A DNA stretch of 64,000 nucleotides from Squalus acanthias (taxonomy: Eukaryota). The DNA lies in NCBI GenBank assembly GCA_030390025.1, contig CM059438.1, forward strand, positions 79,546,001 through 79,610,000, in the 5' to 3' direction. The position numbers and the translations under genes are program-made. Position 1 is the first letter of the stretch, and every line of letters begins with the position of its first letter. Under the pieces are notes generated by a model. That model was not told the origin of the DNA. It saw only the letters and a program-made list of their open reading frames with translations, and did not search any database. Shown piece by piece: positions 6,759 to 64,000 of the stretch.

Positions 6759-7626
6759 GTCATGCTAATGCAACATTTCAAGGTGAAAATCCAATTGTAT
6801 ACATTGGCAACAAGTTAATCACAAGAGATCTCATAAGCATTTCCATGGACTTCAAAACCAGAGATACGGATGCTGTTCTGCTGCAGGCCAGCAATGGTGC
6901 CGATTCTGTTTGGTTTGGTTTCCACAATTCGCAGTTGCAGTTCAGATTGTATAGTGGGAACAGTGTGGAAGGCCTCACTCTCTTGAGTAACATCAACATC
7001 TCAGATGGACAGTGGCATTCAGTGCTCATTGCGATGGTGGAGCCTTTTGTGATGTCGTCAAAGTGGATCATTATTGTTAATGGAAATTCCAATTTTACCA
7101 GCACAGTCACTGCTGGGAACTTAAATTTTCTTCGAGACAATGTGAATATAACACTAAGCAACAATTTTACAGGTTGTCTTGGAGTGGTTAAAATTGGTGG
7201 AATATATCTTCCTTACTTCAATCAACATTTTTTTACAAACACTGAACAGTTTGTTATAATGAGCGGTCCCCCGGCTCAAATTGGATGCTTTGGCACAGAG
7301 GTATGTTCCTCAAATCCATGCCAAAATAATGGAACATGCGAAGATCTATTTGACCTTTTCCAGTGCAATTGCATTGCAGGGTGGGAAGGCACAAGGTGTG
7401 AAATCAACATCGATGACTGCGTGTCCAGTCTCTGTATTCATGGTAATTGCAGCGATTTGGTGGAAGGCTACAAGTGTAACTGCGATCAGGGCTACACCGG
7501 AATGAACTGTGAGAATGATATAGATGACTGCATAAACCACACATGTAAAAACGGCGGGACCTGCGTTGACGGCATCAACTTGTACTTCTGCAACTGTCCA
7601 AACCAGTTCACTGGACAATACTGCGA
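6759..7626 (+). CDS. CRB2: CRB2 large internal exon: third laminin G domain plus three EGF repeats
   Basis: tttcacag|GTCAT ... TGCGA|gtaagc. Peptide (C)HANATFQ...FKTRDTDAVLL...ISDGQWH...FTGCLGVVKIGGIYLPY, then CSSNPCQNNGTC, DDCVSSLC and DDCINHTC EGFs. Phase 1 in, phase 2 out. Confidence 0.96.
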
Positions 7627-9292: not shown

Positions 9293-9409
9293 ATGGTTGT
9301 ACCCACCAGTCAAGTGTGGAGAGAGTTTCAGCTGTAACAATGGAGGGCTTTGCACTGATGGATTCTGGGGTGCCAATTGTACCTGCATGCCAGGCTTTAC
9401 CGGAGAAAG
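9293..9409 (+). CDS. CRB2: CRB2 internal exon, EGF-like repeat (missed by the ORF track)
   Basis: taattttttcag|ATGG ... GAAAG|gtaatg. Translated by hand: (E)WLYPPVKCGESFSCNNGGLCTDGFWGANCTCMPGFTGE(R). 117 nt, phase 2/2, matching both neighbours. Confidence 0.93.
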
Positions 9410-12860: not shown

Positions 12861-13789
12861 CACATATCCAGCAACTCCTGCTATAAGTACACATATGTCG
12901 TGCCCCCTATGAAGCTGGTTATAGGAACAGGCTTGGATGTGATGACTTTCCTTCCCCCTCCACCCACACCTGTAGCCAAATAGTCTGCTGACAGTCACCA
13001 CTGAGGCTTCCACCTGAATGGTGACTTCAGGTGGGACAAACACTTGCTAATGCCTTCAGGACAGTGGAGAAAACGAGCAAAAATTTATAAAGAAGAAAAT
13101 ACTCACCTACCACCTGTTAGAAGTGCGCCAATGTATTGGTCATCATATCTAAACACAAACATCTCCAGACAAATTCCATCTTGTAATTGGGATGTTTATT
13201 CAGTCACTCCATCCTCACAGGGGACAGGTTGTACTCTGAATTATCACACATGATTGAAAAGTAAAGTCATTCATCAAGACAATAGATCTGAATAAGTTCT
13301 GGATGCCGTGAGTCTCTTATGGAGTCTTCAGCTGGAAGTGGGAGTCGTGTGCTCCAGAAAGTTTACATTTATCAAAGTATTGCCCTAGAAATGTTAAAAA
13401 TGGCACAACCTACTTTATTAATTGAAGGTATGGATGTGATTACTTTGAAATTAATTTAAAACCTTTTAAGTGTCTTAGAGGTTTGGAATGTAACCAGTTT
13501 TTCCTTACTATGAGAAAAAGGAAATTATAAACCATTGCCTTGAGTGAAAGGCTTCATATTATTGGTGCTAAAAGACGGCATTTCTAAACTAGGGTTTTTT
13601 TTACATAAAGTACTGAACAATGTTGTCAGTTGCATTTGTGTGAATTCCAGTCTGTAGGAAACGAACTGATAGACATTACAAATGACTAGCAGTCTGAACC
13701 ACACCAGATCATTTTGGGAAAGGGACTGGTTTGTCAAATTCGTATGGTCTCTCTTTACTGAATTTCCTCCTCAAACTTTTTTTTTGAAG

Positions 13790-13916
13790 ATGTGAACAAG
13801 AAGTCAATGAGTGTGACCCAAACCCCTGCCAGAATGGAGGGACCTGCCAGGACCTGGTCAACAAGTTTGAATGCATTTGTGGAGCCAATTTCGCGGGCGA
13901 ACAGTGCGAGATTGAC
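13790..13916 (+). CDS. CRB2: CRB2 last EGF exon (missed by the ORF track)
   Basis: tttttttttgaag|ATGT ... ATTGAC|gtaagc. Peptide (R)[42 protein letters not shown]. 127 nt, phase 2 in, phase 0 out. Confidence 0.96.
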
Positions 13917-14036
13917 GTAAGCGACCTTTCTTTCTTCTGCTCAATGTTGCTTTGGCAAAATCTTTTTCAGTTCTTGTCCTATCTAATCCTGCACATGGAC
14001 ACCGAGGAGCCTGAAACAGAGTTTGTCTGGCGCTAG
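13917..14036 (+). CDS. CRB2: Alternative C-terminus by read-through of the last EGF exon (CRB1-B-like TM and acidic tail)
   Basis: In frame: [39 protein letters not shown]. Closely matches the human CRB1 alternative tail as recalled (VSSLSFYVSLLFWQNLFQLLSYLILRMNDEPVVEWGEQEDY). Confidence 0.85.
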
Positions 14037-14377
14037 ATTTGCTCAAGTCCTTCCAAATCTGTGTACCAGGGAGGGATGTGTTGTGACAATATGTATGGAA
14101 TACTATACAAGTAAAAAAAAAACATTTTTCAATCCTGTTGGAAGTTTGTAGGCAAATCTTTGGTGGTCCTAATGTTTCACAACTGATGTTGTCCAGCAGT
14201 AGAATGGCTACAATAATTAGTTTGTCCTGTTGAACACATGTTGGAATCGGAGCTGACACCCCAGTCTACTCCCCAAATGTGTGGAGGCCTCCACCATTCT
14301 CAGTCAGGTTACTGTGCAAAGTATTTAATTGAGGCAGAGCACTCTCATTTTATCAGTCTTTTCTCTGCTAAGGTTCT

Positions 14378-14383
14378 AATAAA
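14378..14383 (+). terminator. Candidate intronic poly(A) signal for the read-through isoform
   Basis: AATAAA ~340 nt after the stop at 14036, followed by U/GU-containing sequence. Position is suggestive only. Confidence 0.4.
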
Positions 14384-14529
14384 TTGTGGGTCTCCCCTGC
14401 CAGTATTATCTTACGTTGTATTCCTGCTCCGAGATCCACTGCCAGTTCACAAAGGAATAGGAAAAAATTAAAGTGTAGTCCGACTGCTAGATGGAAAGTA
14501 CAATTTCACTGATGTTAAAGTCACATTAG

Positions 14530-14840
14530 CACATAAAAGTAAAAACATGGAAACAGGCCATTTGGCCCAACCAGTCCAGGTCAGCGTTTACCCTCCACGC
14601 AAGCAAATAGTTCGAATCACATTTACTCACCCTGTTCCCATATCCAGTCAATTCCTTTCCTTCATCCACCGAACCAATCCAATCTTGAATGTTGGCACTT
14701 TCTGCCTCAACCACTAGCCCTGGAACTAAGTTTCACAACCTCACAGCTCTGTGTGAAGAGGCTTCTCCTGTCCTCAGTTCGAAATCTCTTACGTTTAAAA
14801 TCATGCTTAAGTGGCTCCTTAATCTTGACTCCATAACTAC
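14530..14840 (-). mobile_element. Old CR1 LINE 3' fragment
   Basis: caggccatttggccca tail motif. Translated remnants RRSLFTQ and VEAESA. Confidence 0.7.
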
Positions 14841-15429
14841 GGTCTTGATACCCCTGAACTGCACTAGTGCAGGTGCATCTAGTGGAAGCTCCTAGTCTGG
14901 TTTGTGTACTTATGCTGTTGATTGCCAAGTCATCACACTGTGATTTTCAGGTATCTAGGAGTTAACTACAGTCATTAACAATTTACGTACACAAACCATA
15001 CCTTCCCAAGATTGATTTCCACCATGAAAATGGACCATTTTCCTAACAAATGGTCCTGGTAAGCATTTCTCTAATGGTTCCACTTCATTAATCATCTATC
15101 TGTGCACATTGGGGAAAGAAGTATTTTTAAAGCTGCAGTGTCCCATAGTTGGCACAGTCAGAGTTTGAAGGTGCAAGAGATTTATCCAAAACTAGAAGAT
15201 TAAAGTGATGCTACAAGTAGCACTCAGTAAGATTTCAATTGTCAATCTAAAGAATTGATTTTGCCGAAGCAAAATCCCAGCCATTTTTCCCTAAAATAAG
15301 ATGGTTGTAAAAGCAAACTTGCAGTAAATTAGAAACTCAAAACCTGTTGAAGAAAAGAGCCCAAGTACATTGTGCAAAACAAGTTACAGCAACGGCACTG
15401 ATGCTGCAACTATTCTGTCTATTAAAGCT

Positions 15430-18890: not shown

Positions 18891-21800
18891 AGATCTATCT
18901 TTGCCCCCTCCCCTTCCTCATCTACATGCTGCCCTTCAGCAACATCAAAGACATAGAAGATAGGAGCAGGAGTAGGCCATTCGGCCCCTCGAGCCTGTTC
19001 CGCCATTTAATGAGATCATGGCTGATCATCCAAATTCAGTACCCTGTCTGTCCCTGCTTTCTCCCCATATCCCTTGATCCCTTTAGCCTTAAGAAATATA
19101 TCTAACTCCTTCTTGAATATATTTAATGAATTGGCCTCAACTGCCTTCTGTAGTAGAGAATTCCACAGGTTCACCACTCTCTGGGTGAAGAAATTCCTCC
19201 TCATCTCAGTCCTAAATGGCTTACCCCTTATCCTTAGACTCTGACCCCTGGTTCTGGACTCACCCGCCATCAGGAACATCCTTCCTGCATCTAGTCTGTC
19301 TAGTCCTGTTAGAATTTTATAAGTTTCAATGAGATCCCCTCTCATTCTTCTAAACTCTAGCGAATATAAGCCTAATCGACCCAATCTCTCTTCATATGTC
19401 ATTCCTGCCATCCCAGGTATCAGTCTGGTGAATCTTCGCTGCACTCCCTCCATGGCAAGAACATCCTTCCTCAGATAAGGCGACCAAAACTGTACACAAT
19501 ACTCAAGGTGTGGTCTCACCAAGGCCCTGTACAACTGCAGCAAGACATCCTTGCTCCTGTACTCGAATCCTCTCGCTATGAAGGCCAACATACCATTTGC
19601 CTTCTTAACCGCCTGCTGCACCTGCATGTTTACCTTCAGCGACTGGTGCACAAGGACACCCAGGTCTCGTTGCACTTCCCCTTTTCCCAATCTATTGCCG
19701 TTCAGATAATAATCTGCCTTCCTGTTTTTGCCACCAAAGTGGATAACCTCGCATTTATCCACATTATACTGCATCTGCCCTGCATCTGCCCAATCACCCA
19801 ACCTGTCCAAATCATACTGGAGTTTCTCTGCATCCTCCTCACACCACACACACCCACCCAGCTTTGTGTCGTCTGCAAACTTGGAGATATTACATCTAGT
19901 TCCCTCGTCTAGATCATTAATATATATTGTGAATAACTGGGGTCCTAGCACCGATCCCTGCGGTACCCCACTAGTCACTGCCTGCCACTCGGAAAAAGAC
20001 CCGTTTATTCCAACTCTTTGCTTCCTGTCTGCCGACCAGTTCTCTATCCAAGTCAGTACCTTACCCCCAATCCCATGTGCTTTAACTTTGCATGCTAATC
20101 TCTTATGCGGGACCTTATCGAAAGCCTTCTGAAAGTCCAAATACACCACATCCACTGGTTCTCCCTTATCTATTCTACCAGTTACATCCTCAAAAAATTC
20201 CAGTAGGTTAGTCAATCATGATTTACCTTCTGTAAATCCATGTTGACTTTGTCCGATCCTGTCACTGTTTTCCAAGTGCTCTGCTATTACATCTTTTATA
20301 ATGGACTCTAGCATTTTCCCCACTACCGATGTCAGGCTATAATTCCCCGTTTTCTCTCTACCACCTTTTTTAAATAGTGGGAACTGTGCCAGAGTGTATA
20401 GAATTTTGGAAGATGACCAGCAATGCATCTACTATTTCTAGGGCCACTTCCTTAAGTACCCTAGGATGTAGATTATCAGGCCCTGGGGATTTATCGGCCT
20501 TCAATCCCTACAAATACTGATTTCATTCAGTTCCTCCCTCTCATTAGACGCTATGTTCCCCGACATCTCTGGGAGGTTATTTGAGTCCTCCTTTGTGAAA
20601 ACAGAACCAAAGTATGTATTTAATTGGTCTGCCATTTCTTTGTTCCCCATTATAATTTCCCCTGATTCTGACCGCAAGGGACCTACGCTTGACTTCACCA
20701 ATCTTTTTCTCTTCACATATCTATAGAAGCTTTTACAGTCAGTTTTTATGTTCCCTGCAAGCTCACTCTCATACTCTATTTTCCTCCTCTTAATTAATCC
20801 CTTTGTCCTCCTTTGCTGAATCCTAAACTGCTCCCAATCCTCAGGTTTGCTGCTTTTTTGGCCAATTTATATGTCCTCTCCTTGGATCTTATGCTATCCC
20901 TAATTTCCCTTGTTAGCCACGGTTGAGTCACCTTTTTTGTTTTATTTTTATGCCAAACAGGGATGAACAAATTCTGTAGTTCATCCATGCGATCTTTAAA
21001 TGTTTGCCATTGCCTATCCACTGTCAACCCTTTAAGTAACGCTCCATCCATCCTAGCCAACTCACGCCTCATACCATCGTAGTTTCCTTTATTTAAATTC
21101 AGGACCCTAGTCTCTGAGTCAACTACTTCACTCTCCATCTTAATGAAGAGTTCTATCATATTATGATCGCTCCTCCCCAAGGGGCCTCGCACAACAAGAT
21201 TGCTAATTAATCCTCTCTCATTACATAATACCCAGTCTAAGATGGCCTGATCTCTAATTGATTCCTCTACATATTGGTCCAGAAAACCATCCCGTATACA
21301 CTCTAGGAATTCCTCCTCCACAGTATTGTTACTAATTTGGTTAGCCCAATCTATATGTAGATTAAAGTCACCCATGATAACTGCTGTGCCCTTATTGCAC
21401 GCGTCTCTAATTTCCTGTTTAATGCCATCCCCAACCTCAGCATTACTGTTTGGGGGTCTGTATACAACTCCCACTAACGTTTTCTGCCCCTTGGTATTTC
21501 TCAGCTCTACCCATACAGATTCCACATCATCAGAGCTAATATCCTTCCTTACTATTGTGTTATGGCATCAGGTTTCACATATACGCTGACAACACCCAGA
21601 TCTACTTCTCCACCATCTCTCTTGACCCCTCCACTGCGGCTGTGTTGTCAGCCTGCATGTCTGCCATTTCATCGGGAAGACCGAAGCCATCGTCTTTGGC
21701 CCCCACTACCAACTCCGACTCCCTCCATACGCACTGTCTCAGGTTGAAGCTGTCTGTCCGCAATTTCCGCATCCTATTTTATCCCGAGCTGAGCTTCTGA

Positions 21801-22479
21801 CCCCACATCTTCTCCATCACAAAGACCATCTACTTCTGCCTTTGTAATATCGTGCGTCTCCATCCCTGCCTCAGCCCGTCTGTTGCCGAAACCCTCATCC
21901 ATGCCGTTGTCACCTCCAGACTGGACTATTCCAATGCTCTCCTGGCCAGCCTCCCATCCTCCATAAACCTCATCTCATCTAAGCTTGGTCTCATCTCATC
22001 CAAAACTCTGTTGCCCATATCCTAACCCGCACTCTCCAGTGCACCCATTAACCCTGTGCTTGCTGACCTATGTTGCCTCCCGGTGGTCCAATACCTCCAA
22101 TTCAAAATTCTCATCCTTATCTTCAAATCCCTTCATGGCCTCACCCCTCCCTATCTTTGTAACCTCCTTCAGCCCTACAACCCTTGGAGAACACGGCGTT
22201 CCTGTAACATTGGCCTCAGCCATCCCCACTTCCTTCGACCCACAATTGGCGGCCGTACCTTCAGCCATTTAGGCCCTAAGCTCTGGAATTCCCTCCCTAA
22301 ATCTCTTTTCCCCTTTAAGACCTTCCTTAAAAAAAAACTACCTCTTTGACCAAGCTTTTAGCTGCCTCCTAATACCTCCTTGGGTGGCTCGGTGTCAATG
22401 TTTGTCGGATTACGGTTGTGAAACATCTTTGGCTGTTTTTCTACATTAAAGGCGTTGTATAAATTCAAGTAGTTGTTGT
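18891..22479 (+). mobile_element. L2-clade LINE 3' portion split by a CR1 insertion (pieces ~18891-18946 and ~21560-22479)
   Basis: RT motif PLPFLIYMLPFSNI continues after the CR1 as YGIRFHIYADNTQIY. Downstream LPV..LQFKILILIFKSLHGLTPPYL...GGRTFS...PKLWNSLP, then a (gtt)n tail. Confidence 0.85.
18947..21557 (-). mobile_element. CR1 LINE, 5'-truncated, with endonuclease and RT fragments (frameshifted ORF2)
   Basis: APE motifs GVVYRPP, MGDFN, LDWVL, SDHN (20794-21525). RT motifs YLDFQKAFDKV, GVPQGSVLGP, FADD in a 399-aa ORF (19016-20215). Confidence 0.97.
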
Positions 22480-28117: not shown

Positions 28118-28339
28118 AGAGGGAAAAAGGCCGACCCTGTCCCGTTACTGGCAGTAGCTGTGCCGGTGGTGTGTGGGAGTGCGCTGCTGATTGTAATAGC
28201 TCTTATTTTTGTGGTTCTTACTGCCCGTAAAAAGCGCCAGACAGAAGGGACGTACAATCCAAGCCAACAGGAAGTGGCTGGGGCTCGACTGGAGATGGAT
28301 AGTGTCCTTAAAGTGCCACCCGAAGAGCGCTTGATATGA
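28118..28339 (+). CDS. CRB2: CRB2 terminal exon A: transmembrane helix plus canonical CRB2-type 37-aa tail
   Basis: ctcccattgtctttacag|AGA, phase 0. Peptide [77 protein letters not shown]-binding GTY and PDZ-binding ERLI present. [24 protein letters not shown] matches CRB2. Confidence 0.97.
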
Positions 28340-29384: not shown

Positions 29385-29606
29385 AAAGGAACCACCCAGA
29401 GAAATGACACTCTCATTATCGCTGGTTCTGTGGCTGCAGCTGGAGGACTTGTCATCTTCATCATCGCCATCATAGTTCTGGTGATCACTATGAGAAAGAA
29501 GAGGGCAACGCAGGGAACCTATAGCCCCAGTCGGCAGGAAAAGGATGGAGCAAGGGTGGAGATGTGGAACATAATGAAGCCTCCACCAACAGAAAGGCTT
29601 ATTTGA
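29385..29606 (+). CDS. CRB2: Alternative terminal exon B: transmembrane helix plus CRB1-type 37-aa tail
   Basis: gttctacaacag|AAA, phase 0. Peptide [73 protein letters not shown]. 222 nt, the same length as exon A, with no stops or frameshifts. Confidence 0.88.
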
Positions 29607-39600: not shown

Positions 39601-40225
39601 AAGAACACAAGAACATAAGAAATAGGAGCAGGAGTAGGTCATTCGGCCCTTTGAGCCTGCCCCGCCATTCAATGAGATCATGGCTGATCTTCTGCCTCAA
39701 CTCCATTCACCGGCCCTATCGCCATATCCCTTGATGCCCTTACTAGTCAGAAATCTATCAATCTCTGTCTTGAATATACCCAATGACTGAGCCTCCACAG
39801 CCCTCTGGGGTAGAGAATTCCAAAGATTCACCACCCTCTGTGTGAAGAAATTTCTTCTCATCTCGGTCCTGAATGGCCTACCCTTTATCCTGAGGCTGTG
39901 GCCCCTGGTTCTAGACTCCTCAGCCAAGGGAAACATTCTCCCAGCATCCACCCTATCAAGCCCTGTAATAATTTTGTATGCTTCAATGAGATCCCCTCTC
40001 ATTCTTCTGAATTCAAGAGAATACAGGCCTAGTTTACTCAATCTCTTCTCATACGACAGTCCCGCCATCCCAGGAATCAATCTCGTGAACCTTCGTTGCA
40101 CTCCCTCTATGGCAAGTATATCCTTCCTTAGGTAAGGAGACCAAAATTGTGCACAGTACTCCAGGTGTGGTCTCACCATGGCCCTATATAATTGGAGTAA
40201 GACTTCTTTACTCCTGTACTCAAAT
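39601..40225 (-). mobile_element. CR1 LINE 3' fragment
   Basis: ORF VRPHLEYCAQFWSPYLRKDI...RRNFFTQRVVNLWNSLP, with aagaacataagaa tail. Confidence 0.95.
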
Positions 40226-40334
40226 TGTTGTTGTTAACTTGTCTTTTGTAACATCAAAAGGTGTTATGCAGTGAGTATAACACAGCAGACCCAATGTATG
40301 CTGCACCATGGCTGCATGAGGTAATAATGTAAAC

Positions 40335-40590
40335 AACACCTCGCAAACCTGCGACCTCTACCACCTGCAAGTTCCCCTCCAAGTCACACACCAGCCTGAC
40401 TTGGAAATATATCGCCATTCCTTCATTGTCACTGGGTTAAAACCCTGGAACTCCCAACCTAACAGCACTGTGGGCGTACCTTCACCACACGGACTGCAGC
40501 GGTTCAAGGCGGCAGCTCACCACCACCTTCTCAAGGGCAATTAGGGATGGGCAATAAATGATGGCCACATCCCATAAACAAATAAAAAAA
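40335..40590 (+). mobile_element. 3' end of the 46481-49059 LINE family
   Basis: Near-identical to 48750-49059, including aagggcaattagggatgggcaataaatg and an A-rich tail. Confidence 0.88.
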
Positions 40591-40611
40591 GTAATGGGCT
40601 GGAGGCTTACT

Positions 40612-42579
40612 TAAGAACATAAGAAATAGGAGCAGGAGAAGGCCATTAGACCCTTCGAGCCTGCTCCGCCATTCAATGAGATCATGGCTGATCTTCTTCC
40701 TCATCTCCACTTTCCTGCACTATCCCCATATCCCTTGTTTCCCTTAATATTCAAAAATCTATCGATCTCGGTCTTGAATATACTTAATGACGGAGCCTCC
40801 ACAGCCCTCTGGGGTAGAGAATTCCAAAGATTCACCACCCTGAGTGAAAAAATTTCTCCTCCTCTCAGTCCTAAATGACTGACCCCTTATTCTGAGACTG
40901 TGACCTCTGGTTCTAAACTCCCCAGCCAGGGGAAACAGCCTCCCTGCATCTACCCTGTCAAGCCCTGTAAGAATTTTGTATGTTTCAATGAGGTCACCTC
41001 TCATTCTTCTAAACTCTAGAGAATATAGGCCTAGTCTACTTAATCTCTCCTCATAGGACAATCCCCCCTTCCCAGAAATCAGTCTGGTGAACCTTCGTTG
41101 CACTCCCTCTATGGCAAGTATATCCTTCCTTAGATAAGGAGACCAAAACTGTACACAATACTCCAGGTGTGGTCTCACCAGGGCCCAATAAGAGTCTTTA
41201 CTCTTATACTCAAATCCTCTTGTAATTAAGGCCAACATACCATTTGCTTTCCTAATTGCTTGCTGTACCTGCATGTTAACTTTCAGTGATTCGTGTACAA
41301 GGACACCCAGGTCCCTCTGAACACCAACATTTCCCAATCTCTCACCATTTAAAAAATACTCTGCTTTTCTATTTTTCCTACCAAAGTGGATAACTTCACA
41401 TTTCTCCACATTATATTCCATTTGCCATGTTCTTACCCACTCACTTAGCCTGTCTAAATACCCTTGCAGCCTCCTCACAACTTACATTCTTACCCAGCTT
41501 TGTATCATCAGCAAACCTGGATATATTACATTTGGTCCCCTCATCCAAATCATCGATGTAGATTGTGAATAGCTGAGGCCCAAGCACTGATCCTTGCGGT
41601 ACCCCACTAGTTACAGCCTGCCAACCTGAAAATGACCAGTTTATTCCTACTCTCTGTTTTCTGTCCGTTAACCAATCCTCAATCCATGCTAGCATATTAC
41701 CCCCAATCCCATGAGCCCTAATTTTGTTTAATAACCTCTTGTGTGGCACCTTATCGAATGCCTTCTGAAAATCCAAATACACCACATCCACTGGTTCCCC
41801 CTTATCTATTCTGCTAATTACAACCTCAAAAAACTCTTAACAGATTTGTCAAACATGATTTCCCTTTCATAAATCCGTGTTGACTCTGCCCAATCCTATT
41901 AATTTCAAAGTACCCTGTCACCACGTCCATAATAATAGATTCCAGCATTTTCCCTACTACTGATGTCAGGCTAACTGGTCTGCAGTTCTCCGTTTTCTCT
42001 CTCCCTCCTTTCTTAAATAGTGGGGCTACATTTGCTGCCTTCCAATTCGCGGGAACCGTTCTAGAATCTATGGAATTTTGGAAGATGACAACCAATGCAT
42101 CCACTATCTCTACAGCCACCTCTTTCAAAACCCTAGGATGTAGGCCATCGGGTCCAGGGGATTTATCGGCCCTCTGTCCCATTAATTTCTCCAGCACCAC
42201 TTCCCTTCCAATACCAACCACCTTCAGTTCCTCACCCTCGCCAGACCCCCCGGCTCTCCACCACCTCCGGAAAGCTCCCTGCGTTCTCCTCCGTGAAGAT
42301 AGCCATTTCCTTATTCCCCATTATAATTTCTCCTGTCTCAGCCTGTAATGGACCCACATTTACTTTCAATAATCTTTTCCTTTTTACATACCTATAGAAG
42401 CTTTAACAGTCTGTTTTTATGTCTCTCACTAGTTTACTCTCATATTCTATTTTCCCTTTCTTTATCAATTTCTTGGTCCTCCTTTGCTGAATTCTAAAAT
42501 TCTCCCAATCCTCAGGCTTACATTATAAGCCTTGACAACATTATGAGCCTCTTCCTTTGATCTAATACTATCTTTAACT
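40612..42579 (-). mobile_element. CR1 LINE, 5'-truncated, with frameshifted RT
   Basis: KSPGPDGLHPRVLKE, YLDFQKAFDKV, GVPQGSVLGP, FADD and RPHLEYCVQFW spread across three ORFs. A poly-G run follows at 42581. Confidence 0.96.
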
Positions 42580-46312: not shown

Positions 46313-49300
46313 GGGCCAGATTTTGCTGTAGCGGTGCATCTAACTACGTCTGCTGTTTGTTGCCCCAGCACCCTAGAGCTCAAAAAGTTTTTGCCGACAA
46401 AGTTGCTGAACGTGCAAGCTGATAACGGTGCAGCGAGGGAAACAGGACATCTGGCACCTGAGTGAACAGGGCAATTACAGGAACAGTGGCATAGTGGTTA
46501 TGTTACTGGACCAGTGATCCAGAGGCCTGGACTAACGATCCGGAGACGTGAGTTCAAATCCCACCTCAAATCCAAGTCGGCAGCTGGGGAATTTAAATTC
46601 AGTTAATTAAATAAATCTGGAATAAGAAGCTAGTATCAGTAATGGTGACCATGAAACTATCGGATTGTTGTAAAAACCCATCTGGTTCACTGATGTCCTT
46701 TTGGGAAGGAAATCTGCCGTCCTTACCTTACCAAACCGCTACGAGAAACAATAATATGAATAAATCCAGACAGACCACCCGGCATCGACCTAGGCACCGG
46801 CTTCGGACACGACAACGGCACACCCAGCCCAGTCAACCCTGCAAAGTCCTTCTCACTAACATCTGGGGACTTGTGCCAAAATTGGGAGAGCTGTCCCTCA
46901 GACTAGTCAAGCAACAGCCTGACATAGTCATACTCACAGAATCATACTTTTCAGCTGATGTCCCAGACTCCTCCATCATCATCCCTGGGTATGTCCTGTC
47001 CCACTGGCAGGACAGACCCACCAGGGGTGGCGGCACAGTGGTGTACAGTCGGGAGGGAGTGGTCCTGGGAGTCCTCAACATTGACTCCGGACCCCATGAA
47101 GTCTCATGGCTTCAGGTCAAGCATGGGCAAGGAAACCTCCTGCTGATTACCACCTACCACCCTCCTTCAGCTGATGAATCAGTACTCCTCCATGTTGAAC
47201 ACCACTTGGAAGAAGCACTGAGGATAGCAAGGGCACAGGATGTACTCTGGGTGGGGGACTTCAACGTCACTACTACTGACCGAGCTGGCCAAGTCCTGAA
47301 GGACATAGCTGCCAGACTGGGCCTGCGGCAGGTGGTGAGAGAACCAATACGAGGAAAAAACCTACTTGACCTCGTCCTCACCAATCTACCTGTCGCAGAT
47401 GCATCTGTCCATGACAGCATTGGTAGCAGTGACCACCGCACAGTCATTGTGGAGACGAAGTCCCGTCTTCACACTGAGGACACCCTCCATCGTGTTCTGT
47501 GGCACTACCACCGTGCTAAATAGGGATAGATACAGAACAGATCTAACAGCTCAAAACTGGGCATCCATGAGGCGCTGTGGGCCATCAGCAGCAGCAGAAT
47601 TGTATTTCACCACAATCTGTAACCTCATGGCCCGGCATATCTCTCACTCTACCATTACCATCAAGCCAGGTGACCAACCCTGGTTCAATGAGGAGTACAG
47701 AAGGGCATGCCAGGAGCAGCACCAGGCGTACCTAAAAATGAGGTGTCAACCTGGGGAAACTGCAACACAGGACTACATGCATGCTAAACAGCGGAAAGCA
47801 GCACGCTATAGACAGGGCTAAGCGATCCCACAACCAACGGATCAGATCCAAGCTCTGCAGTCCTGCCACATCCAGTCGTGAATGGTGGTGGACAATTAAA
47901 CAACTAACGGGGGGAGGAGGAGGCTCCATGAATATTCCCATCCTTAATGATGGCGGAGCACAGCACGAGTGCAAAAGACAAGGCTGAAGTGTTTGTAACC
48001 ATCTTCAGCCAGAAGTGCCAAAAGGTTGATCCATCTCGGCCTCCTCCTGAGGTCCCCATCTCAGCCCCAGGGCATCGATGCAGGAGTTCCTCAGGACAGT
48101 GTCCTACTACCCAACCATCTTCAGCTGCTTCATCAATGACCTTCCCTCTATCATAAGGTCAGATGTGGGGATGTTGGCTGATAATTGCACCGTGTTCAGT
48201 TCCATTCGCAACTCCTCAGAAAATGAAGCAGTCCATGCCCACATGCAGCAAGACCTGGACGACATTCAGGCTTGGGCTGATAAGTGGCAAGTAACATTCG
48301 CGCCACACAAGTGCCAGGCAATGACTATCTCGAACAAGCAAAAGTCTAACCACCTCCCCTTGACATTCAACAGCATTACCCTCGCTGAATCCCCCTCCAT
48401 CAACATCCTGGGGATCACCATTGACCAGAAACTTAACTGGATCAACCGCATAAATACTGTGGCAACAAGCGTGAGTCAGGGGCTGGGTATTCTGCGGCAA
48501 GTGAATACCCAAAGCCTTTCCACCATCTACAAGGCACAAGTCAGGATGGCATACTCTCCACTTGCCTGGATGAGTGCAGCTCCAACAACACTCAAGAAGC
48601 TCGACACCATCCAGGACAAAGCAGCCCACTTGACTGGCACCCCATCCACCACCTTCAACATTCACTCCCTCCACCACCGACGTACCGTGGCTGCAGTGTG
48701 TACCATCTAACAAGATACACTGCAGCAACTCGCCAAGGCTTCTTCAACAGCACCTCCCAAACCCGCGACCTCTACCACCTAGAAGGACAAGGGCAGCAGG
48801 TGCATGGGAAGACCATCACCTCAAAGTTCTCCTCCAAGTCATACACCACCCTGACTTGGAAATATATTACCGTTCCTTCATCATCACTGGGTCAAAATCC
48901 TGGAACTCCCTCCCTAACAGCACTGTGGAAGTACTTTCACCACACGGACTGCAGCGGTTCAAGAAGGTGGCTCACCACCATCTTCTCAAGGGCAATTAGG
49001 GATTGGCAATAAATGCTGGCCCTGCCAGCAACGCCCACATCCTGGAACGAATAAAAAAAGATCAACAGGGTATTTCCTTAAGCAATGAGATTTAAGGATT
49101 GGGAATAAACACATGAAGGACTGATAAGGAGGGTGACTTAAAGGGGTAAATTCAATGTTAAATCAGACATAGAAAGTGAAATAAAGAGGGAAAGAAAGAT
49201 TGGATTAAGAGAGAGAACAAAAGAGACAGAAAGGAAGAGTAAAAAAAACCTAACATTTAAAATTGACATTTTTAAAATCTCCAAAAATAATTTTCAACCT

Positions 49301-49677: not shown

Positions 49678-52600
49678 AACATCTTTTAATAAATGAAATA
49701 TGAAACATCTTTTCAGTAAAAGGCAAAAGATTTATACAATAACAAGACGCAACAGGACACAAAATGGTCTTTCATTGAATAAAATGTGTTTCTCATGGCT
49801 GAGATATTATGGTGTTTATTTTGTGTAAAACAAACAAGCAGAAAGTGATTCAACCTATTTCCTGATTAAGTGATTAAAAAGGATATTTCCTGAATGATCT
49901 CCTGAGCTGTAGAGATTATTTCTTGAGGGTATTTGTTAGCTTCACACTGGACTGTAGAGTTACATTTTTCCATAACAAAGAGACTCCGTAACAGAGTTCA
50001 ATATTAATTTGTAAATAATTCACTAGCTCTGGGATACTGATAGCGTGTTAGTAAATAAATCATTATCAGTACCTACAGCTAGAACTATTTGTTATATTTA
50101 TTTCAAGTCATTATACATAATGCATTTGTATTTTTTTTAATGCACTATTGCTGCCAGAACTCATCATTGCACTTAAAGAAACTCCGTCAGTTTTGTTTCA
50201 CAACTATTTGACTATTTTCCATATGTATTTTTGCATTAAATATTTCCCATAAAATACTGATTAGCAACTAAGTAAATGACTCACGTGAATTTTGTACATT
50301 TTAAATATTTCTGGATTAAATTGTACAGAAATCCTAAAAGTGCCAATAAGTATTTTTTCTCCATATAATCTAAATGTTATTTTTCCTCATAAATGTATTC
50401 TGTGTTCACATTTAACATTCGCTGAAATTTTACCTGCTCCAAGGACATAATTCCAATGGAGTAAATCACTTCCATTGTCTCAGATCTTCAATTGTTAAAC
50501 TACTTTCTAATCATTCCAATTATGTAGAACCATAATCGATCATCAAGACATTTCCCATTCATTCCTATTATATAGAATTCAAATCCATTTTTGATTCACT
50601 CCCATTGTATAAACTGGTGACCATGGAAGTGGGTCAATGCATTGTCCTTTACTTCTGTCACTTCGGTTGAACCCAGCAAAGTCTGATAAGGTGACAGTCT
50701 CTTCTTTGCATTTGATGTAAGGGTCCTAGGTGAATTGAGTTTGTGTAGTCTCAACCTAAACCTCAAGGGATATGGCAAGAAAGTCACTGCATAACACTGC
50801 CTGTAATTTAGCGTGAAATTGCAATTGCAAATTAAAATGAGAGGCCATTGATAAGGCTGGTGCTAGTTCTGTTCTAGAGTTGTGGTTAGCCATATTGTTT
50901 GTACACGTAAGAAATACTTACTGTGTCTCAATTCCGTATTACACATAACTTGAGAATATTTGATGTAGACAGTGGGTGCAAAAACTGGAAGAATGTTCTG
51001 TTCCTCAGCGCTGACATCCTTCATTTTGATGAGCACAGAAGTAATATTCAAAATTCCTGATTCAGGCATAAAATGGTCACAAGTACTCTAGTCAATCCAT
51101 TGCTCAGTGCCACTGAAAAAGAGCAGCACACTGAAGAAGTCTAATGACTTTTGTGTAAGAAATTATCTTGTTTAGTTTCTGCTTAGACTGAATTGTTGAA
51201 TGAACGATTAAAATAACTGTGTTCCAGAGATATCCAAGTTGGCTGTTTTTTCATAGTAATCTTGATCCACACAAGCCTACCGATTCATTAATTTGACTGA
51301 ACTATATCCGCAGGATGTTAATTGTGGCAGAAACATATTCATATTTATATCAATTTCTAAACATGAAATATACAGAAAGGTAGTTCTGGATGATCCTCTA
51401 ATTTCTGTAACTTAAAAAGAGGTGATTTTTTTTAAACAAAGTATTGCATACTTGTTAAAATACCAACATTTCCAGACATAATGGCAATAAAATACATTTT
51501 GGGCTTCTCTGTACAGTTTGAGGACTGGATTTGAATTCCAGTCTGGGCTGACATTTGAAGTTATCCAGCTCTTAGTCGATGAGATTGTTCCACTCTTCGG
51601 CTGGGTAGTTGGATGATGCGCCTTTTGGTAATGGAACATTCCGATTCTGGAGAAAGAAAGGAGAATGTGTGGGAGGCCAAATCCAGGTGCACACCCGTCA
51701 GCTCATTACTGAGTGACAGCCCACAACGTCCTCCCACACCTCCCAAAACCGGAAGCGAAACAGCTGAAGGGGAACCTAAAGGAGGAATTTCCAATTAAAA
51801 ATAATTTCCAGCAACATATGATTTATTAAATAAATCCATTCATAATACAGACTTTGCATGGAGAGATGAAATAAGTTACTTTGCTCCTCACACCTCATCA
51901 TATTGTTTGTTTCTCAGTAAAGCACATGCATGTTTGGAACAATTGCTCTTTGAAAGAGATTTACCTTCCACCTTCCAGAAATGCTTAGACTATTTGCATG
52001 TTTTGATGGAATCACCAGAGACATTATAAGCCTAATTGAATATGCATAAGTGACAGTTATGTTGCTGCTGAAATATTTATTACTTTGGTTTCATTACATT
52101 CTTTTTCCCCCCACCCTACAAAGCCCCTTTTTTGTTTGCAATGCATATTTTGTTATTTGCAGTTTGCGACCTTTTTGTGTTTAGGATTTTCTATTCAATT
52201 TTTCTTCCGTGTTGGTCCTCAAAATTCATAAAATCACAAAAAAATGTTAAAATGTACACGGATTGAAGCCTCCTTTTCACTAGTTCTGTGATAATGCAGC
52301 ACATAATGTGGTAGGTAATCAGGAGCTTGTGTGTTGAAACATCTCATGAATACATGCAAGTTACCATAAGTGGGCATTGTAATCCACACATGAAGTATAT
52401 CCACTCATTGCTTTTACTTACCTATTCCCATTGAACAAATTCCTCATCTTCCTTCCTGTTAGTTTCAGTGGACCTCAAATTAAAAGTTTTTGAAAAAAAT
52501 GCAACCAAATATATAAGCCTTGAAAAATTGATAGCTACTTGGCTGCAAATTCCTGTTTACAGTTTAAAATCTGATTAGAAGCTCAAGAAACATCAAAACC

Positions 52601-52736
52601 ATGTCACCGCTGTGGTGAGCTTCCAAATTGATTCTTTCCACTGTTCTCTAAAAATATTTACTCGAAGCTGGCGGGCAATTAAACAAAGTTGCTGCTTGAT
52701 GAACTTATACTTACAAATACGATAGACCTTGTTCAA

Positions 52737-54349
52737 GCTGTTGTGAGGTCCATGGATTGAGCTCGAGCTGCTCTGAGGTCCATGGATTGAGCTCGAGCTG
52801 TTGTGAGGTCCATGGATTGAGCTCGAGCGGTTGTGAGGTCCATGGATTAAGCTCGATCTGTTGTGAGGTCCATGGATTGAGCTCGAGCTGCTCTGAGGTC
52901 CATGGATTGAGCTCGAGCTGCTCTGAGGTCCATGGATTGAGCTCGAGCTGCTCTGAGGTCCATGGATTGAGCTCGAGCTGTTGTGAGGTCCATGGATTGA
53001 GCTCGAGCTGCTCTGAGGTCCATGGATTGAGCTCGAGCTGTTGTGAGGTCCATGGATTGAGCTCGAGCTGTTGTGAGGTCCATGGATTGAGCTCGAGCTG
53101 CTCTGAGGTCCATGGATTGAGCTCGAGCTGTTGTGAGGTCCATGGGTTGAGCTCGAGCTGTTGTGAGGTCCATGGATTAAGCTTGAGCTGCTGTGAGTTC
53201 CATGGATTGAGCTCGAGCTGTTGTGAGGTCCATGGATTGAGCTCGATCTGTTGTGAGGTCTATGGATTGAGCTCGAGCTGCTCTGAGGTCCATGGATTGA
53301 GCTCGAGCTGCTCTGAGGTCCATGGATTGAGCTCGAGCTGTTGTGAGGTCCATGGATTGAGCTCGAGCTGCTCTGAGGTCCATGGATTGAGCTCGAGCTG
53401 TTGTGAGGTCCATGGATTGAGCTCGAGCTGTTGTGAGGTCCATGGATTGAGCTCGAGCTGCTCTGAGGTCCATGGATTGAGCTCGAGCTGTTGTGAGGTC
53501 CATGGGTTGAGCTCGAGCTGTTGTGAGGTCCATGGATTAAGTTCGAGCTGCTGTGAGTTCCATGGATTGAGCTCGAGCTGTTGTGAGGTCCATGGATTGA
53601 GCTCGATCTGTTGTGAGGTCTATGGATTGAGCTCGAGCTGCTCTGAGGTCCATGGATTGAGCTCGAGCTGCTCTGAGGTCCATGGGTTGAGCTCGAGCTG
53701 CTCTGAGGTCCATGGATTGAGCTCGAGCTGCTCTGAGGTCCATGGGTTGAGCTCGAGCTGTTGAGGTCCATGGATTGAGCTCGAGCTGCTCTGAGGTCCA
53801 TGGATTGAGCTCGAGCTGTTGTGAGGTCCATGGATTGAGCTCGAGCTGCTCTGAGGTCCATGGATTGAGCTCGAGCTGTTGTGAGGTCCATGGATTAAGC
53901 TCGAGCTGTTGTGAGGTCCATGGATTGAGCTCGAGCTGCTCTGAGGTCCATGGATTGAGCTCGAGCTGTTGTGAGGTCCATGGATTAAGCTCGAGCTGTT
54001 GTGAGGTCCATGGATTGAGCTCGAGCTGTTGTGAGGTCCATGGATTGAGCTCGAGCTGTTGTGAGGTCCATGGATTAAGCTCGAGCTGTTGTGAGGTCCA
54101 TGGATTGAGCTCGAGCTGCTCTGAGGTCCATGGATTGAGCTCGAGCTGTTGTGAGGTCCATGGATTGAGCTCGAGCTGCTCTGAGGTCCATGGATTAAGC
54201 TCGAGCTGTTGTGAGGTCCATGGATTAAGCTCGAGCTGTTGTGAGGTCCATGGATTGAGCTCGAGCTGCTCTGAGGTCCATGGATTGAGCTCGATCTGCT
54301 GTGAGGTCCATGGATTAAGCTCGATCTGTTGTGAGGTCCATGGATTGAG
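52737..54349. repeat. 30-bp minisatellite, ~54 copies
   Basis: Unit gctg(ttg/ctc)tgaggtccatggattgagctcga, with one 2-bp deletion at ~53761. There are no unique spacers, so this is not CRISPR. Confidence 0.99.
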
Positions 54350-55828
54350 TTTAGCCAGTTAGGAGGGTGAAAGACAGCTCAAATTTTTAATGAGGATGAG
54401 AAACTGAGCTCCAGGTTTTACAAAAACAAACTGAGCTTGGGCAATTATGAAGATGAAACTGAGCTTGGAGATTTATGAAGACAACATATTGAGCTCAGGG
54501 TTTGAAGGCAGTGCCTGAGTTAGGGTTGGTCTGAGTACTATGAGTTGTTATTAAAAACAATGGATTGAGTCATGGTTGTTGAGGATGAAAGACTGAGCTG
54601 GGATTGTTGCAGTAGCAGAACTTTGTAAAACCTCCAACTGTAAAATCATATTTATTTCAGATGCTGTTGGCCAAGATACTGTAAATTTAAAATGGACTCA
54701 GTTAGCCACATTCTTAAAAGAGCTCCCTTGTATTTGTGGGAGAAAAAGGCAATACATGAAAACAGTCTTAATTTTTATGGGACTATGTGATGCAGTTGAT
54801 TTCCTACAGCAAAGTCATTACGTGGATTCAGAATTGCATCAAAAATGTCTTCATTTTTTTGAGATGTTAATAAATGCAAACCATCATCAAAGCAAAAATG
54901 GCTACAAGAGCAAACAAGCTATGGAGATCAAATGTCAAAGGCAAACAAGACCGCCAGAATGACCAGAAGATTGCTGCTCACATCCTATTTATGTGAGCAG
55001 TAAAATTGATTAATAATGATTGTCTGGTTAGTGGGAAATAACTTCTGTGATCTGATGTGTCAATGGCTGTCTTTGGTATTGCATAAATGTTGCTGATTTT
55101 CCCCATATCCAGTTTCTTGTTTTCAAGTTCAAGTGGTGATGAAAGGGCTCCACGTAACATATCATCAGAAACTCCATTAAAAGATCCCAGAAAGGACATT
55201 AAGATTTTGGATGCATTATTGTTTTCCATTTAAGAAATGTGGAAGTATCGAATTGGTAGTTACTCGATGGTTTTTGATTCTGTTTAATTATGTACTTCAC
55301 AAATAAATCTTCTATTTGTTTGTTCTTGGGATGTGGGTGACAGTGTTGTCCTCAGGGCAATTATGGATGGGCGAGAGTCATATGTGCGCTAGACCGGGTA
55401 GGGGTGGCAAGCTCAAAATTTGCCATGGTGGGATTTTCAACTCTCAACCTCTGGGTTGCTCGTCCAGTATGAAACCCACTAGGCTACCGTACCCTGACTA
55501 TTACCTTTCGCATATTATAGTCCATCAATCAGCTGCCTTCCAAAGTGGATAGGAGCACTTTGAGGACAACTGTGGTGTGGTGTGAAGTGTTAAGGTAAAA
55601 TGGTAATTGTTGGTCCTGTGGGATTGTATGCCTATTCACATCACACACAAGTTTTAGTACATAGGAGCTGCAGGTCCACTTATGGAATTTGAGCTTAAAG
55701 CAGTTGAGAGCCCAAATTGTAACAGGGACAATGGACTCTCAGACTTTCATGAAGGCAACATAATGAGGTTGAGACATAGCCATATGGTTAGAGTTTTGCT
55801 TTCCTGTGAGGATTGTCACATTTAGTTA

Positions 55829-61836: not shown

Positions 61837-63174
61837 TTATTCAAAGGTCTCCCATTTCTTCCTGAGCTGGTCCACTCTACTTTGTGATGGTGCTGCCTCC
61901 TTCTTTGTTGCATTAAGCAAATCTGCAAATGGATCTTGAGCCTCCCCAGGATTGGATGGTTGTAATATTCTTTCTTTGGAAGGCTTTGGTGGGACTAACG
62001 GTGGCTCAGTCAAATTTTTTGCAGCACCGCCCACCACTGGATTGGAATCAGACACATTTGTACCCGCTTTTCCTGCTGTTTTTGTGTAGCTTATACCACC
62101 GAGGCTTGCTGACGAGACTGCACTTTGCTGAATAAAAGTACCAGACTGAGGGATGGCTGTGGGCTGGTTGTACAAGTGGTGAAGGGAAGGTGCTGAATAG
62201 TTCCTATGAGGCATTTGGGGTTGGAAGAAACCTGAATTTGAAGGCAAAAAGCTTGAAACAAAAGCAGACGCTGCAGGTGGAGCAAAATGACTTGCAGGGG
62301 GCTGTGTCTGAGGAAACTGAAGAGCTGCTGGCATTGTTTGAGAAAATGGATAGGACGGTGGCTGTGGAAACTGCGCCATTGGTGCTGGGCTGGGGGTTGA
62401 GTATCCTAGGGTTTGGCTGAACTGTAAGGAAGCTGGTGGAGTACTTATTCCAAGGTCAGTTCCTGGTGGAGCAAAACCAGTAGAAGCAGGAGTTGAAGAC
62501 AAAGACGGTGCAGATGCTAATGAACCTTTGGGACCTGGAGATTGGCTCCTGTCAAGGCTAGAACTGGCACTCAGTGGATCCAAAAGACTCAAGAGATCGT
62601 TTCTGCTATCCGTTTCTACGCTGACTTTAATAGGTTTCAGGATATCAACAGCACATGAACTTAACAGAGGCTGAGGAGACGAATTCAATGATTGTCTTAA
62701 GTCTGGTGCTTGGGGTTTCTTTTCAGCTCCAATTGATTCTTGTAACATCTCTGAAACCGAGCCAGTGCTGGACACAGTTGTATCTTGTTTAGAGCTATCC
62801 TGTAATACTGTTGATACTTGATTAACTCCAGGAAATGCCTGCTGTTTGACTCCTCGACTAACAGCTACTGGAGGTGGAAGCACTATTCCCTTTTCTGTAG
62901 ACTTCCTGCCATGAGGCCTTGGGATTGTAATGCTGCCTTGCCCACTTGCAATTAGATCTGATGTAGGCACTGAACTGTCCCTGTTCGAAACCTCTGGATC
63001 AATCTCAGTGAAGAAACTTCCAAAGTGAATGCTGCCAGAAGATGAACCATTGATAGACTTAATATTTAGAGCCATGTCATCTTGGCCCATGCTCCAATGT
63101 TTTGTATGAGGCAGAGTATGATGCAGTCCTGCTGACATGGTCTTGCTCTTCTCAGCTGATGTCATTACTTTCCA
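61837..63174 (-). CDS. DENND1A: DENND1A (connecdenn 1, Rab35 GEF) last coding exon
   Basis: Acceptor tgtatctttgcag|TGG. Motifs WSMGQDDMA, GSITIPRPHGRK, LLSLLDPL, a Pro-rich region, the DPF motif and the C-terminal WETFE* (AP-2-binding WXXF-acidic) match DENND1A as recalled. Tail-to-tail with CRB2, as in human. Confidence 0.93.
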   Translation of the reverse strand, partial: WKVMTSAEKSKTMSAGLHHTLPHTKHWSMGQDDMALNIKSINGSSSGSIHFGSFFTEIDPEVSNRDSSVPTSDLIASGQGSITIPRPHGRKSTEKGIVLPPPVAVSRGVKQQAFPGVNQVSTVLQDSSKQDTTVSSTGSVSEMLQESIGAEKKPQAPDLRQSLNSSPQPLLSSCAVDILKPIKVSVETDSRNDLLSLLDPLSASSSLDRSQSPGPKGSLASAPSLSSTPASTGFAPPGTDLGISTPPASLQFSQTLGYSTPSPAPMAQFPQPPSYPFSQTMPAALQFPQTQPPASHFAPPAASAFVSSFLPSNSGFFQPQMPHRNYSAPSLHHLYNQPTAIPQSGTFIQQSAVSSASLGGISYTKTAGKAGTNVSDSNPVVGGAAKNLTEPPLVPPKPSKERILQPSNPGEAQDPFADLLNATKKEAAPSQSRVDQLRKKWETFE

Positions 63175-64000
63175 CTGCAAAGATACATACAATGAAAAAG
63201 TAACATACATGTATTTTTGAATAGTAAGAGTGTATTGTCATAATTCAGTGGAACTAGGGCTTTGAAACGAATACTAAGGTTGGCATGCATCTGCAAACAG
63301 GTTAAAACGCGCTAAATTGATTTATACATTCTCTGGGCAATATTGCAGATTACAAAAATGCAGTGAATAAAGTCTTATGGGCTGATTATGCTACCAAGCA
63401 GTTTCTGATGCTCATCAACACAAACCATATAACTCAGGATTCTGACTGACATAACCCACTGTACTAATACTGACAAACCTTTTCAGCTTTCAAAACATAG
63501 ACATGGACTATGGACATAGTTTCCTTCTATGACATCATTGATAAATTTCACCAGTTCTCAGCTGGGCTTATTGCTGGAAAAAAAATACAATTTACCTGCC
63601 TGTTAGCAAGTAGGACTTATTTTTAAAGACCCTGCCTAGATTAACTTTTCACTCACCATCAAGCTACTTGAAACTAACCTATGGAATGGAATTTAAAAAG
63701 GAACCATGCACAACTTTGATGAGGAGGATGAGCTGGCCAGTGGAATCGGGAGGATCTGCACCAGCCCACAAGAAACAAGAGCTGCTATGTTTTTCAGTTA
63801 GCTACAGCTGCAAGTTCAACCAGTTAGAAAGTAGAGCCATTGATCTTTCATCAGGATGTTGCATGGGGTTTGTCAATGCTGGACTAGGTACAAGAAAGTT
63901 TCTCATCACAAAGGCAAGTCTTCAACCTCCAACCTCTCTCCAGTTTACTGACGCTACTAAAGCCATTACTCCTTAGGACCTTCTTCTCGTTTATTCTAAG

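Follow-up and report, generated by a model that had tools for sequence, protein, structure and literature searches.

CRB1 is a blindness gene and CRB2 is a cell-polarity gene. The closest described counterpart of the feature reported here is CRB1-B, the main CRB1 form in the adult retina. According to the available text of Ray et al. 2020 (PMC7335077), CRB1-B begins with an internal exon that is joined to exon 6. By the same account, the protein is membrane-bound, uses its two unique ends together and, in mouse, is located in photoreceptor inner and outer segments, while the partners of its tail are unknown. Isoform B of CRB1 comprises exons 5c to 11 and has 58 unique residues, as given in the accessible part of PMC8657784. 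Supplement 1 of PMC7335077, in its accessible part, extends CRB1-B to cow, rat and zebrafish only. The main text of Ray et al. 2020 does not mention 'CRB2', and in the accessible part of the long-read table of PMC7335077 the nine mouse Crb2 rows share the canonical 5′ start.

Alternative forms of CRB2 have been described as well. Zebrafish Crb2b-sf has an internal start and lacks the first 11 EGF repeats (available text of PMC11129452), and it rises in the maturing eye (available text of PMC7044448); in these excerpts it is described as differing by its start site alone, and no B-type tail is mentioned. A human CRB2 isoform without transmembrane and intracellular domains was described by Katoh 2004, as cited in the accessible part of PMC7044448. 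No report of a B-type tail in CRB2 was found in the literature searched, in which the coverage of subscription journals was small, so that absence from print is unproven.

The stretch of shark DNA that we analysed (64,000 nucleotides, hereafter the window; G000:C14:79546001-79610000) contains, on its + strand, the 3′ half of a Crumbs gene. Like CRB1-B, this gene has a homologous 3′ end at the same exon position that lacks GTY and ERLI, and a candidate internal signal exon of shark CRB2 lies at the matching junction. Unlike CRB1-B, the shark tail lies in CRB2, CRB1 being on C15, its acidic end has diverged, and it is known here from sequence. Because its host gene is CRB2, the shark tail is not CRB1-B itself. 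As in zebrafish Crb2b-sf, the candidate exon follows 11 EGF repeats. The human isoform of Katoh resembles the shark feature in being an alternative 3′ end of CRB2, whereas it is described as having no membrane anchor. We consider it likely that the shark feature is an ancestral alternative 3′ end of the vertebrate Crumbs gene that was kept in cartilaginous-fish CRB2 and works like the CRB1-B end.

Assignment of the host gene to CRB2

The gene was assigned with a tree of its laminin-G exon, which used one exon only and contained 33 rows, 31 of them proteins picked by hand. The exons concerned are as follows.

6759..7626, + strand: laminin-G plus EGF exon, basis of the CRB2 assignment by the tree
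9293..9409, + strand: 117-nt EGF exon before the last EGF exon
13790..13916, + strand: last EGF exon of CRB2, 127 nt, with a phase-0 end, exon 12/13 according to the exon map; part of spliced contigs in all 4 runs aligned

In this tree the window gene grouped with CRB2 of sharks, rays and chimaera (98/96), the sharks being closest, and it was excluded from the CRB1 clade (99/100), which contained a paralogue on C15; a single exon did not settle the deeper CRB2 branching, including monophyly of all CRB2. A genome search with the last EGF exon plus the tail gave 107 matches, and only the window and C15:68635708-68635932 (63% over 76 residues) reached through the tail. CRB2 (C14) and CRB1 (C15) lie on different chromosomes of this shark. 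The downstream terminal exon a was identical to a marsupial CRB2 tail at 34 of 37 residues, as expected of the canonical CRB2 cytoplasmic tail. Several of the top database matches are labelled 'crumbs homolog 1-like', which would suit a gene that is really CRB1 with the known CRB1-B end as its tail. However, these records grouped with CRB2-labelled ones in the tree, the CRB1 clade already holds the separate C15 gene, and the closest orthologue of the window gene has 66 cysteines (11 EGF) before the first laminin-G exon, as does Xenopus CRB2, compared with 54 in bird CRB1. CRB1 identity is scarcely conceivable in light of these results, and on the evidence of the laminin-G exon tree the window gene is shark CRB2, not CRB1.

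A B-type tail in the read-through frame

The initial annotation claimed that ignoring the donor after the last EGF exon would extend the protein by 39 residues, with an acidic tail lacking GTY and ERLI.

13917..13922, + strand: 5′ splice donor GTAAGC after GAC, with a non-consensus -1 base; identical hexamer in the CRB1 paralogue
13917..14036, + strand: 39-codon B-type tail and its TAG, continuing the frame of the EGF exon
13992..14033, + strand: short acidic cytoplasmic end without GTY or ERLI, which departs from the CRB1 consensus and varies between cartilaginous fish

Read-through of GAC|GTAAGC at 13917 does add 39 codons in frame, up to TAG at 14034-14036, and the translation is exactly the peptide that had been given. 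By itself the open frame is weak evidence, as 18% of 39-codon stretches in the same intron are stop-free, and the donor sequence dictates the first two tail codons (V and S), which add no evidence of selection. The similarity of the peptide to CRB1 is far beyond chance: the first 28 residues scored 122 against the B-type tail of a parrot CRB1 (P0196; 24/28 identical) and 108 against that of a camel CRB1 (P0291; 21/28 identical), while the best of 39,159 intronic stretches scored 22 and 25, respectively. BLASTP, the comparison with CRB1 that the annotation had suggested, aligned the tail with the camel B-type end (24/36 identical, 67%; E 2e-14). The parrot and camel records are named CRB1 rather than CRB1-B, and 'B-type' is a label that we assigned because the camel end (41 residues) and a bird N-terminus (P0180; 17 residues) add up to the 58 residues unique to isoform B. 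The peptide contains neither the FERM-binding GTY nor the PDZ-binding ERLI, again as annotated. These sequence comparisons indicate that the CRB2 tail is homologous to the CRB1 B-type tail.

The donor hexamer of shark CRB1 (C15) is identical, and read-through there likewise leads into a tail, of 36 residues. When the CRB2 and CRB1 tails of this shark were compared over 28 ungapped codons, 22 residues were identical and the differences fell 5/2/17 by codon position (17/24 at third positions), giving pS 0.865 and pN 0.135 (Fisher 9e-9). The corresponding values for the neighbouring EGF exon were 0.895 and 0.28. In the other two reading frames of the tail, 17/27 residues were changed between the paralogues. 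The codon pattern indicates that the tail is coding-constrained and has been held as a protein by old selection, and it suggests that the tail predates the CRB1/CRB2 split, as the initial annotation had proposed.

Alternative explanations of this conservation were considered. The stretch might have been conserved as a non-coding splice-control element beside the donor, with the peptide as a by-product; the donor does fix the first two codons, and a contig from another organism (organism C, below) is unchanged over 57 nt, even at synonymous sites. Between the paralogues, however, synonymous sites are saturated while residues are kept, and in the reading frame only, which largely refutes this explanation and leaves it highly improbable; an RNA element that overlaps the coding tail in addition to its coding role is possible. 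Alternatively, the tail might have been copied from CRB1 into CRB2 by gene conversion after the duplication. It is better kept between the paralogues than the adjoining EGF exon, and other B tails in the databases searched are CRB1-like (23/24 of those with a scorable EGF). Nevertheless, the tail was not copied recently, because its synonymous sites are as saturated as those of the exon. The two genes also lie on different chromosomes, shark and chimaera CRB2 have a common version of their own, and two further terminal exons are common to both genes in identical order (below). We therefore regard conversion as very unlikely, although a very early event is conceivable, and favour an ancestral tail.

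Occurrence of the tail in other species

The CRB2 B tail is already in a public database as an unremarked chimaera gene model. This CRB2 record (P0159; old RefSeq XP_007907240.1) ends in the tail, with 25 of the first 28 residues identical to those of the shark, and the later version of the same RefSeq model (P0156) ends in exon a. The tail was found in one of the 66 records listed from ten CRB2 clusters of cartilaginous and early bony fish, and was absent from the best 120 of 399 database matches. Among 108 further cluster members listed, at most 15 per cluster, it occurred in one, within a CRB1 cluster; the 89 of them in bony-vertebrate CRB2 clusters all lacked it. A profile search of 1.84 billion representatives gave 24 matches, one of them spurious and none assignable to bony-fish CRB2. 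Proteins with the tail and a scorable EGF, from the profile search and later look-ups, numbered 24, of which 23 were nearer to CRB1 and one was a tie.

A contig from organism C (run X8) provided a further comparison. The 192-nt contig aligned to 13929-14061 with 8 differences, no gap and an intact stop codon (depth 2.9, at which single differences may be errors). It showed no difference in 13929-13985, while the exon in the same run had 11 differences in 125 nt; at that exon rate, no change over 57 nt has P of about 0.005. Read by hand codon by codon, codons 5-23 were unchanged and codons 24-36 contained four residue changes plus three silent codons. Most of the differences fall in the acidic end at 13992-14033, which has drifted from the motif kept in CRB1. 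The last 44 letters of the contig do not fit, so the likeness stops shortly past the stop codon.

The annotation had suggested translating the same intron start in CRB2 of other gnathostomes. The chimaera record and the organism C contig agreed with a conserved B-type frame, but read-throughs of the same donor in tetrapod-type CRB2 (turtle P0205, Xenopus P0276, P0314) gave unrelated peptides. Judging from the records searched, the CRB2 B tail seems to be confined to cartilaginous fish and was apparently lost in tetrapods.

Two observations concern other B-type tails. An ENA record (P0310) has a divergent B-type tail, equal EGF scores for CRB1 and CRB2, and Q in place of V at the donor position; its donor may have been lost and its tail may be constitutive, in a deep-branching or duplicate gene. 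There are also at least three distinct versions of fish-like CRB1 B tails (P0293/P0294, P0299/P0302/P0305 and P0296/P0320), perhaps from duplicate crb1 genes.

Contigs over the tail and a candidate intronic poly(A) signal

Parts of 13790-14420 occur in 12 runs, none of which is recorded as RNA and 9 of which we guessed to be RNA. Contigs of 4 of the 12 (X1, X2, X8 and X9) were aligned to 13500-15300, and cover at 14530-14800 was disregarded because it is a common repeat. In all four runs, contigs with the last EGF exon left the window at the exon edges, as spliced RNA would, and the main X1 contig ended exactly at 13916, as expected if several exons follow. Past the tail, X1 contigs covered 14012-14637, 14686-14855 and 14851-15008. 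The first of these starts exactly 30 letters before its one difference at 14042, like a fork in a graph, which is a hint of an upstream contig rather than evidence of one. No listed contig from the four runs, presumed to be RNA, has 31 letters on both sides of the donor at 13917. There was no cover at 13500-13743 in any of the four runs, at 13927-13987 in X1, X2 and X9, or from 13926 up to the repeat in X2 and X9, and such gaps are uninformative since the filter drops records. In two of the four runs, contigs lie on parts of the tail or 3′ region, but none of those listed bridges the donor as would the transcripts past 13916 that the annotation had predicted. A minor isoform with an extended 3′ end would give this pattern, and so would pre-mRNA; CRB2-B is a candidate isoform.

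The annotation had also placed a poly(A) signal behind the stop codon.

14378..14421, + strand: candidate intronic poly(A) signal, AATAAA at 14378-14383, CA at 14401-14402 and a T/GT-rich stretch behind

AATAAA is present in a reasonable context, with CA 18 nt on and then the T/GT-rich stretch. However, its presence does not exceed chance, as the local density of 1.04 per kb gives P=0.30 for a distance of up to 342 nt from the stop, and an X1 contig runs through it to 14637.

These results bear on whether the tail is a relic, that is, an ancestral sequence that was long coding but is now rarely or never used in this lineage, the intronic contigs being unspliced pre-mRNA or DNA. Such disuse would accord with the lack of a bridging contig among those listed, with the shallow depth of the intronic contigs (2.9 to 6, compared with 18 to 31 for spliced exon contigs, contig depth being a poor measure), with the tail's presence in a single one of the 66 listed records, and with the changing acidic end; the tetrapod-type read-throughs show that the tail can be lost. 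In contrast, this shark and chimaera agree at 25/28 residues of the helix core, and an unused frame would not have stayed unchanged over 57 nt in organism C. We consider a relic unlikely and favour a tail still in use.

The donor at 13917 is perfect from +1 to +5 but its -1 base is C, and 14.2 kb separate it from the next acceptor. At such a site, cleavage in the intron (intronic polyadenylation) can win over splicing. We propose that this donor would be skipped and the RNA cut within the 14-kb intron, so that the last EGF would run on into a 22-residue helix and a short acidic end.

A probable membrane helix with an invariant polar face

13926..13991, + strand: 22-residue hydrophobic helix with a polar stripe (Q14, N15, Q18, S21, Y22), likely a membrane anchor, from the structure model and wheel angles

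The hydrophobic stretch of about 22 residues with a polar core that was described in the annotation is real, but its hydrophobicity is modest. The best 19-residue Kyte-Doolittle mean was 1.36 for the CRB2 tail, below the usual 1.6 mark; the shark CRB1 tail reached 1.63, and both ERLI exons about 3.0. A structure model of 81 aa gave one unbroken 26-residue helix at 44-69, corresponding to tail residues 2-27, with pLDDT of 93 in block 51-60 and 82 in block 61-70. By wheel angles, Q14, N15, Q18, S21 and Y22 are on one face of the helix, and both glutamines are invariant in 26/26 aligned sequences. While the WQxxFQxxSY face is fixed, the acidic end varies, and this contrast suggests a role within the membrane. 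Helices in membranes are often paired through buried Gln and Asn, and on this ground we propose that the invariant polar face probably binds a partner within the membrane. Predicted self-association of the tail scored 0.02, a value obtained without an alignment that speaks neither for nor against pairing.

The product would keep the adhesive ectodomain of CRB2 on the membrane without GTY and ERLI. Because these motifs are missing, we propose that, like CRB1-B, it would have no link to the PALS1/PATJ/Par6 polarity scaffold. The low hydropathy and the Q, N and Q in the core raise the alternative that the isoform is made but that its tail forms an amphipathic or re-entrant helix or acts as a release signal, so that the product is not a type I membrane protein but peripheral or secreted. 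However, the model gives a single unbroken helix, and mouse CRB1-B, which has a near-identical core, was in the membrane fraction and reached the plasma membrane (available text of PMC7335077). A peripheral or secreted product is unlikely in our assessment, and a membrane-anchored one is preferred. As a second, independently evolving copy, the CRB2 tail marks which residues of the CRB1-B tail matter, and the fixed helix face gives the exact residues to mutate.

A candidate internal first exon

The search for a CRB1-B-like first exon upstream of the window, as recommended in the annotation, yielded one clear candidate among 172. Candidates were scored by a scheme of our own, in which phase-1 donors (any GT/GC donor) were compared with three known leaders; this was a second try with changed rules, an earlier scan with strict donors and one bird reference having missed the CRB2 candidate. 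The CRB2 candidate, at G000:C14:79533515-79533566 (L024:5515-5566) in intron 6, 12.4 kb upstream of the window, has 17 hydrophobic codons and a phase-1 donor at C14:79533567. It scored 35, the next candidate scored -2, and two control introns gave at most 17. The CRB1 candidate, at G000:C15:68673904-68673862 (L019, minus strand) in intron 5, has 14 hydrophobic codons and a strong phase-1 donor at C15:68673861; its score of 11 (next -4, 175 candidates) is within the control range. Both candidates end in I-T and ACAG|GT, and they have no significant DNA similarity to each other. CRX-like hexamers, by what we take to be the motif definition, are found within 230 nt upstream of both, and such hexamers occur about 2 per kb here.

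The CRB2 candidate sits at the junction where short CRB2 records of Xenopus and gecko begin, and shark and Xenopus CRB2 both have 66 cysteines before it. The Xenopus tropicalis records P0271 and P0278 (1013 and 1014 aa) and gecko P0266 have a short hydrophobic CRB1-B-like first exon with ERLI-type ends, so in CRB2 the internal start need not accompany the B tail. We propose that the shark tail would most likely be paired with the internal signal-peptide exon of intron 6, in photoreceptors, giving a predicted protein of about 980 aa (estimated from P0125). A further alternative start appears in CRB2 of sturgeon, paddlefish and bichir (P0014, P0019, P0163, P0169, P0175), whose longer form of about 1670-1680 aa has a different N-terminus.

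Three tails in two genes

28118..28339, + strand: terminal exon a, canonical CRB2/CRB3-type transmembrane segment with GTY and ERLI, phase 0
29385..29606, + strand: terminal exon b, CRB1-A-type transmembrane segment with GTY and ERLI, phase 0

Exons a and b both have phase-0 acceptors, and in shark CRB1, too, the B tail is followed by exon a and then by exon b. The order of the three tails, namely B, the CRB2/3-type ERLI exon a and the CRB1-A-type ERLI exon b, is common to the two shark genes; this observation is new, and the initial annotation had not made it. In an unrooted tree of 23 64-residue ends, the a exons of CRB1, CRB2 and a CRB3-like gene on C22 split from the b exons and invertebrate ends at 95.5/95, and support for a group of CRB1 and CRB2 b exons was 92.4/88. 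Because a exons and b exons each group across CRB1 and CRB2, the tandem pair predates the gene duplication.

Bird and caecilian CRB1 records terminate in exon b, which also ends the horn shark CRB2 isoform X2 (P0124) and white shark, many bird, turtle, crocodilian, gecko and amphibian CRB2 models. The exon b of bird, turtle, gecko, amphibian and horn shark CRB2 isoforms is the same as window 29385-29606; unlike the B tail, both ends of these isoforms, which are database models, carry GTY and ERLI. No paper on CRB2 isoforms that end in a CRB1-A-type exon was found in the literature searched. Exon a is the end of 7/7 marsupial CRB2 members listed, and exon b was absent from these and from 14/14 teleost crb2a members listed. 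None of the 19 CRB1 cluster members listed uses an exon-a-type end, and no B tail or exon b was found in the 10 kb examined at the CRB3-like locus, which perhaps lacks the relevant intron.

Shark CRB1 itself contains an intact CRB3-like exon a upstream of its usual exon (G000:C15:68612985-68613205; L010:1957-2177, minus strand), the first residues of which closely match the C22 CRB3-like gene.

Two starts and three ends were probably present in the ancestral gene and were later divided among CRB1, CRB2 and CRB3. A fuller reading, for which we judge the chances to be about even, is that the pre-duplication vertebrate Crumbs gene had a full-length and an internal photoreceptor start together with ends B, a and b, that in sharks both CRB1 and CRB2 retain this complete set and CRB2-B protein is made in photoreceptors, and that the tails of human CRB1-A, CRB1-B, CRB2 and CRB3 are old splice variants that were shared out, not products of post-duplication divergence. 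The three-tail layout would explain the difference between the CRB1-A and CRB2 tails, predicts that a CRB1-A-like tail is also made by non-mammalian CRB2, and would be a clean case of splice variants divided among gene duplicates. It is relevant to fish, frog and chick models of CRB1 disease and, because tetrapod CRB2 seems to have lost the B end, to the replacement of CRB1 by CRB2 in gene therapy.

Other features of the window

In human, CRB2 adjoins DENND1A and CRB1 adjoins DENND1B. A convergent gene has its last exon, 466 codons rich in proline and serine, at 61837-63237 on the minus strand of the window. This exon occurs once in the genome and presumably is DENND1A-like; an atlas search and a search of the shark's own genome gave it no name. 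Frames of up to 399 codons at 19016-22349, 39697-42348 and 46615-49012 are what we take to be LINE-like reverse transcriptase and endonuclease. A tandem array of about 1.8 kb at 52593-54378 has a short unit and is open in several frames.
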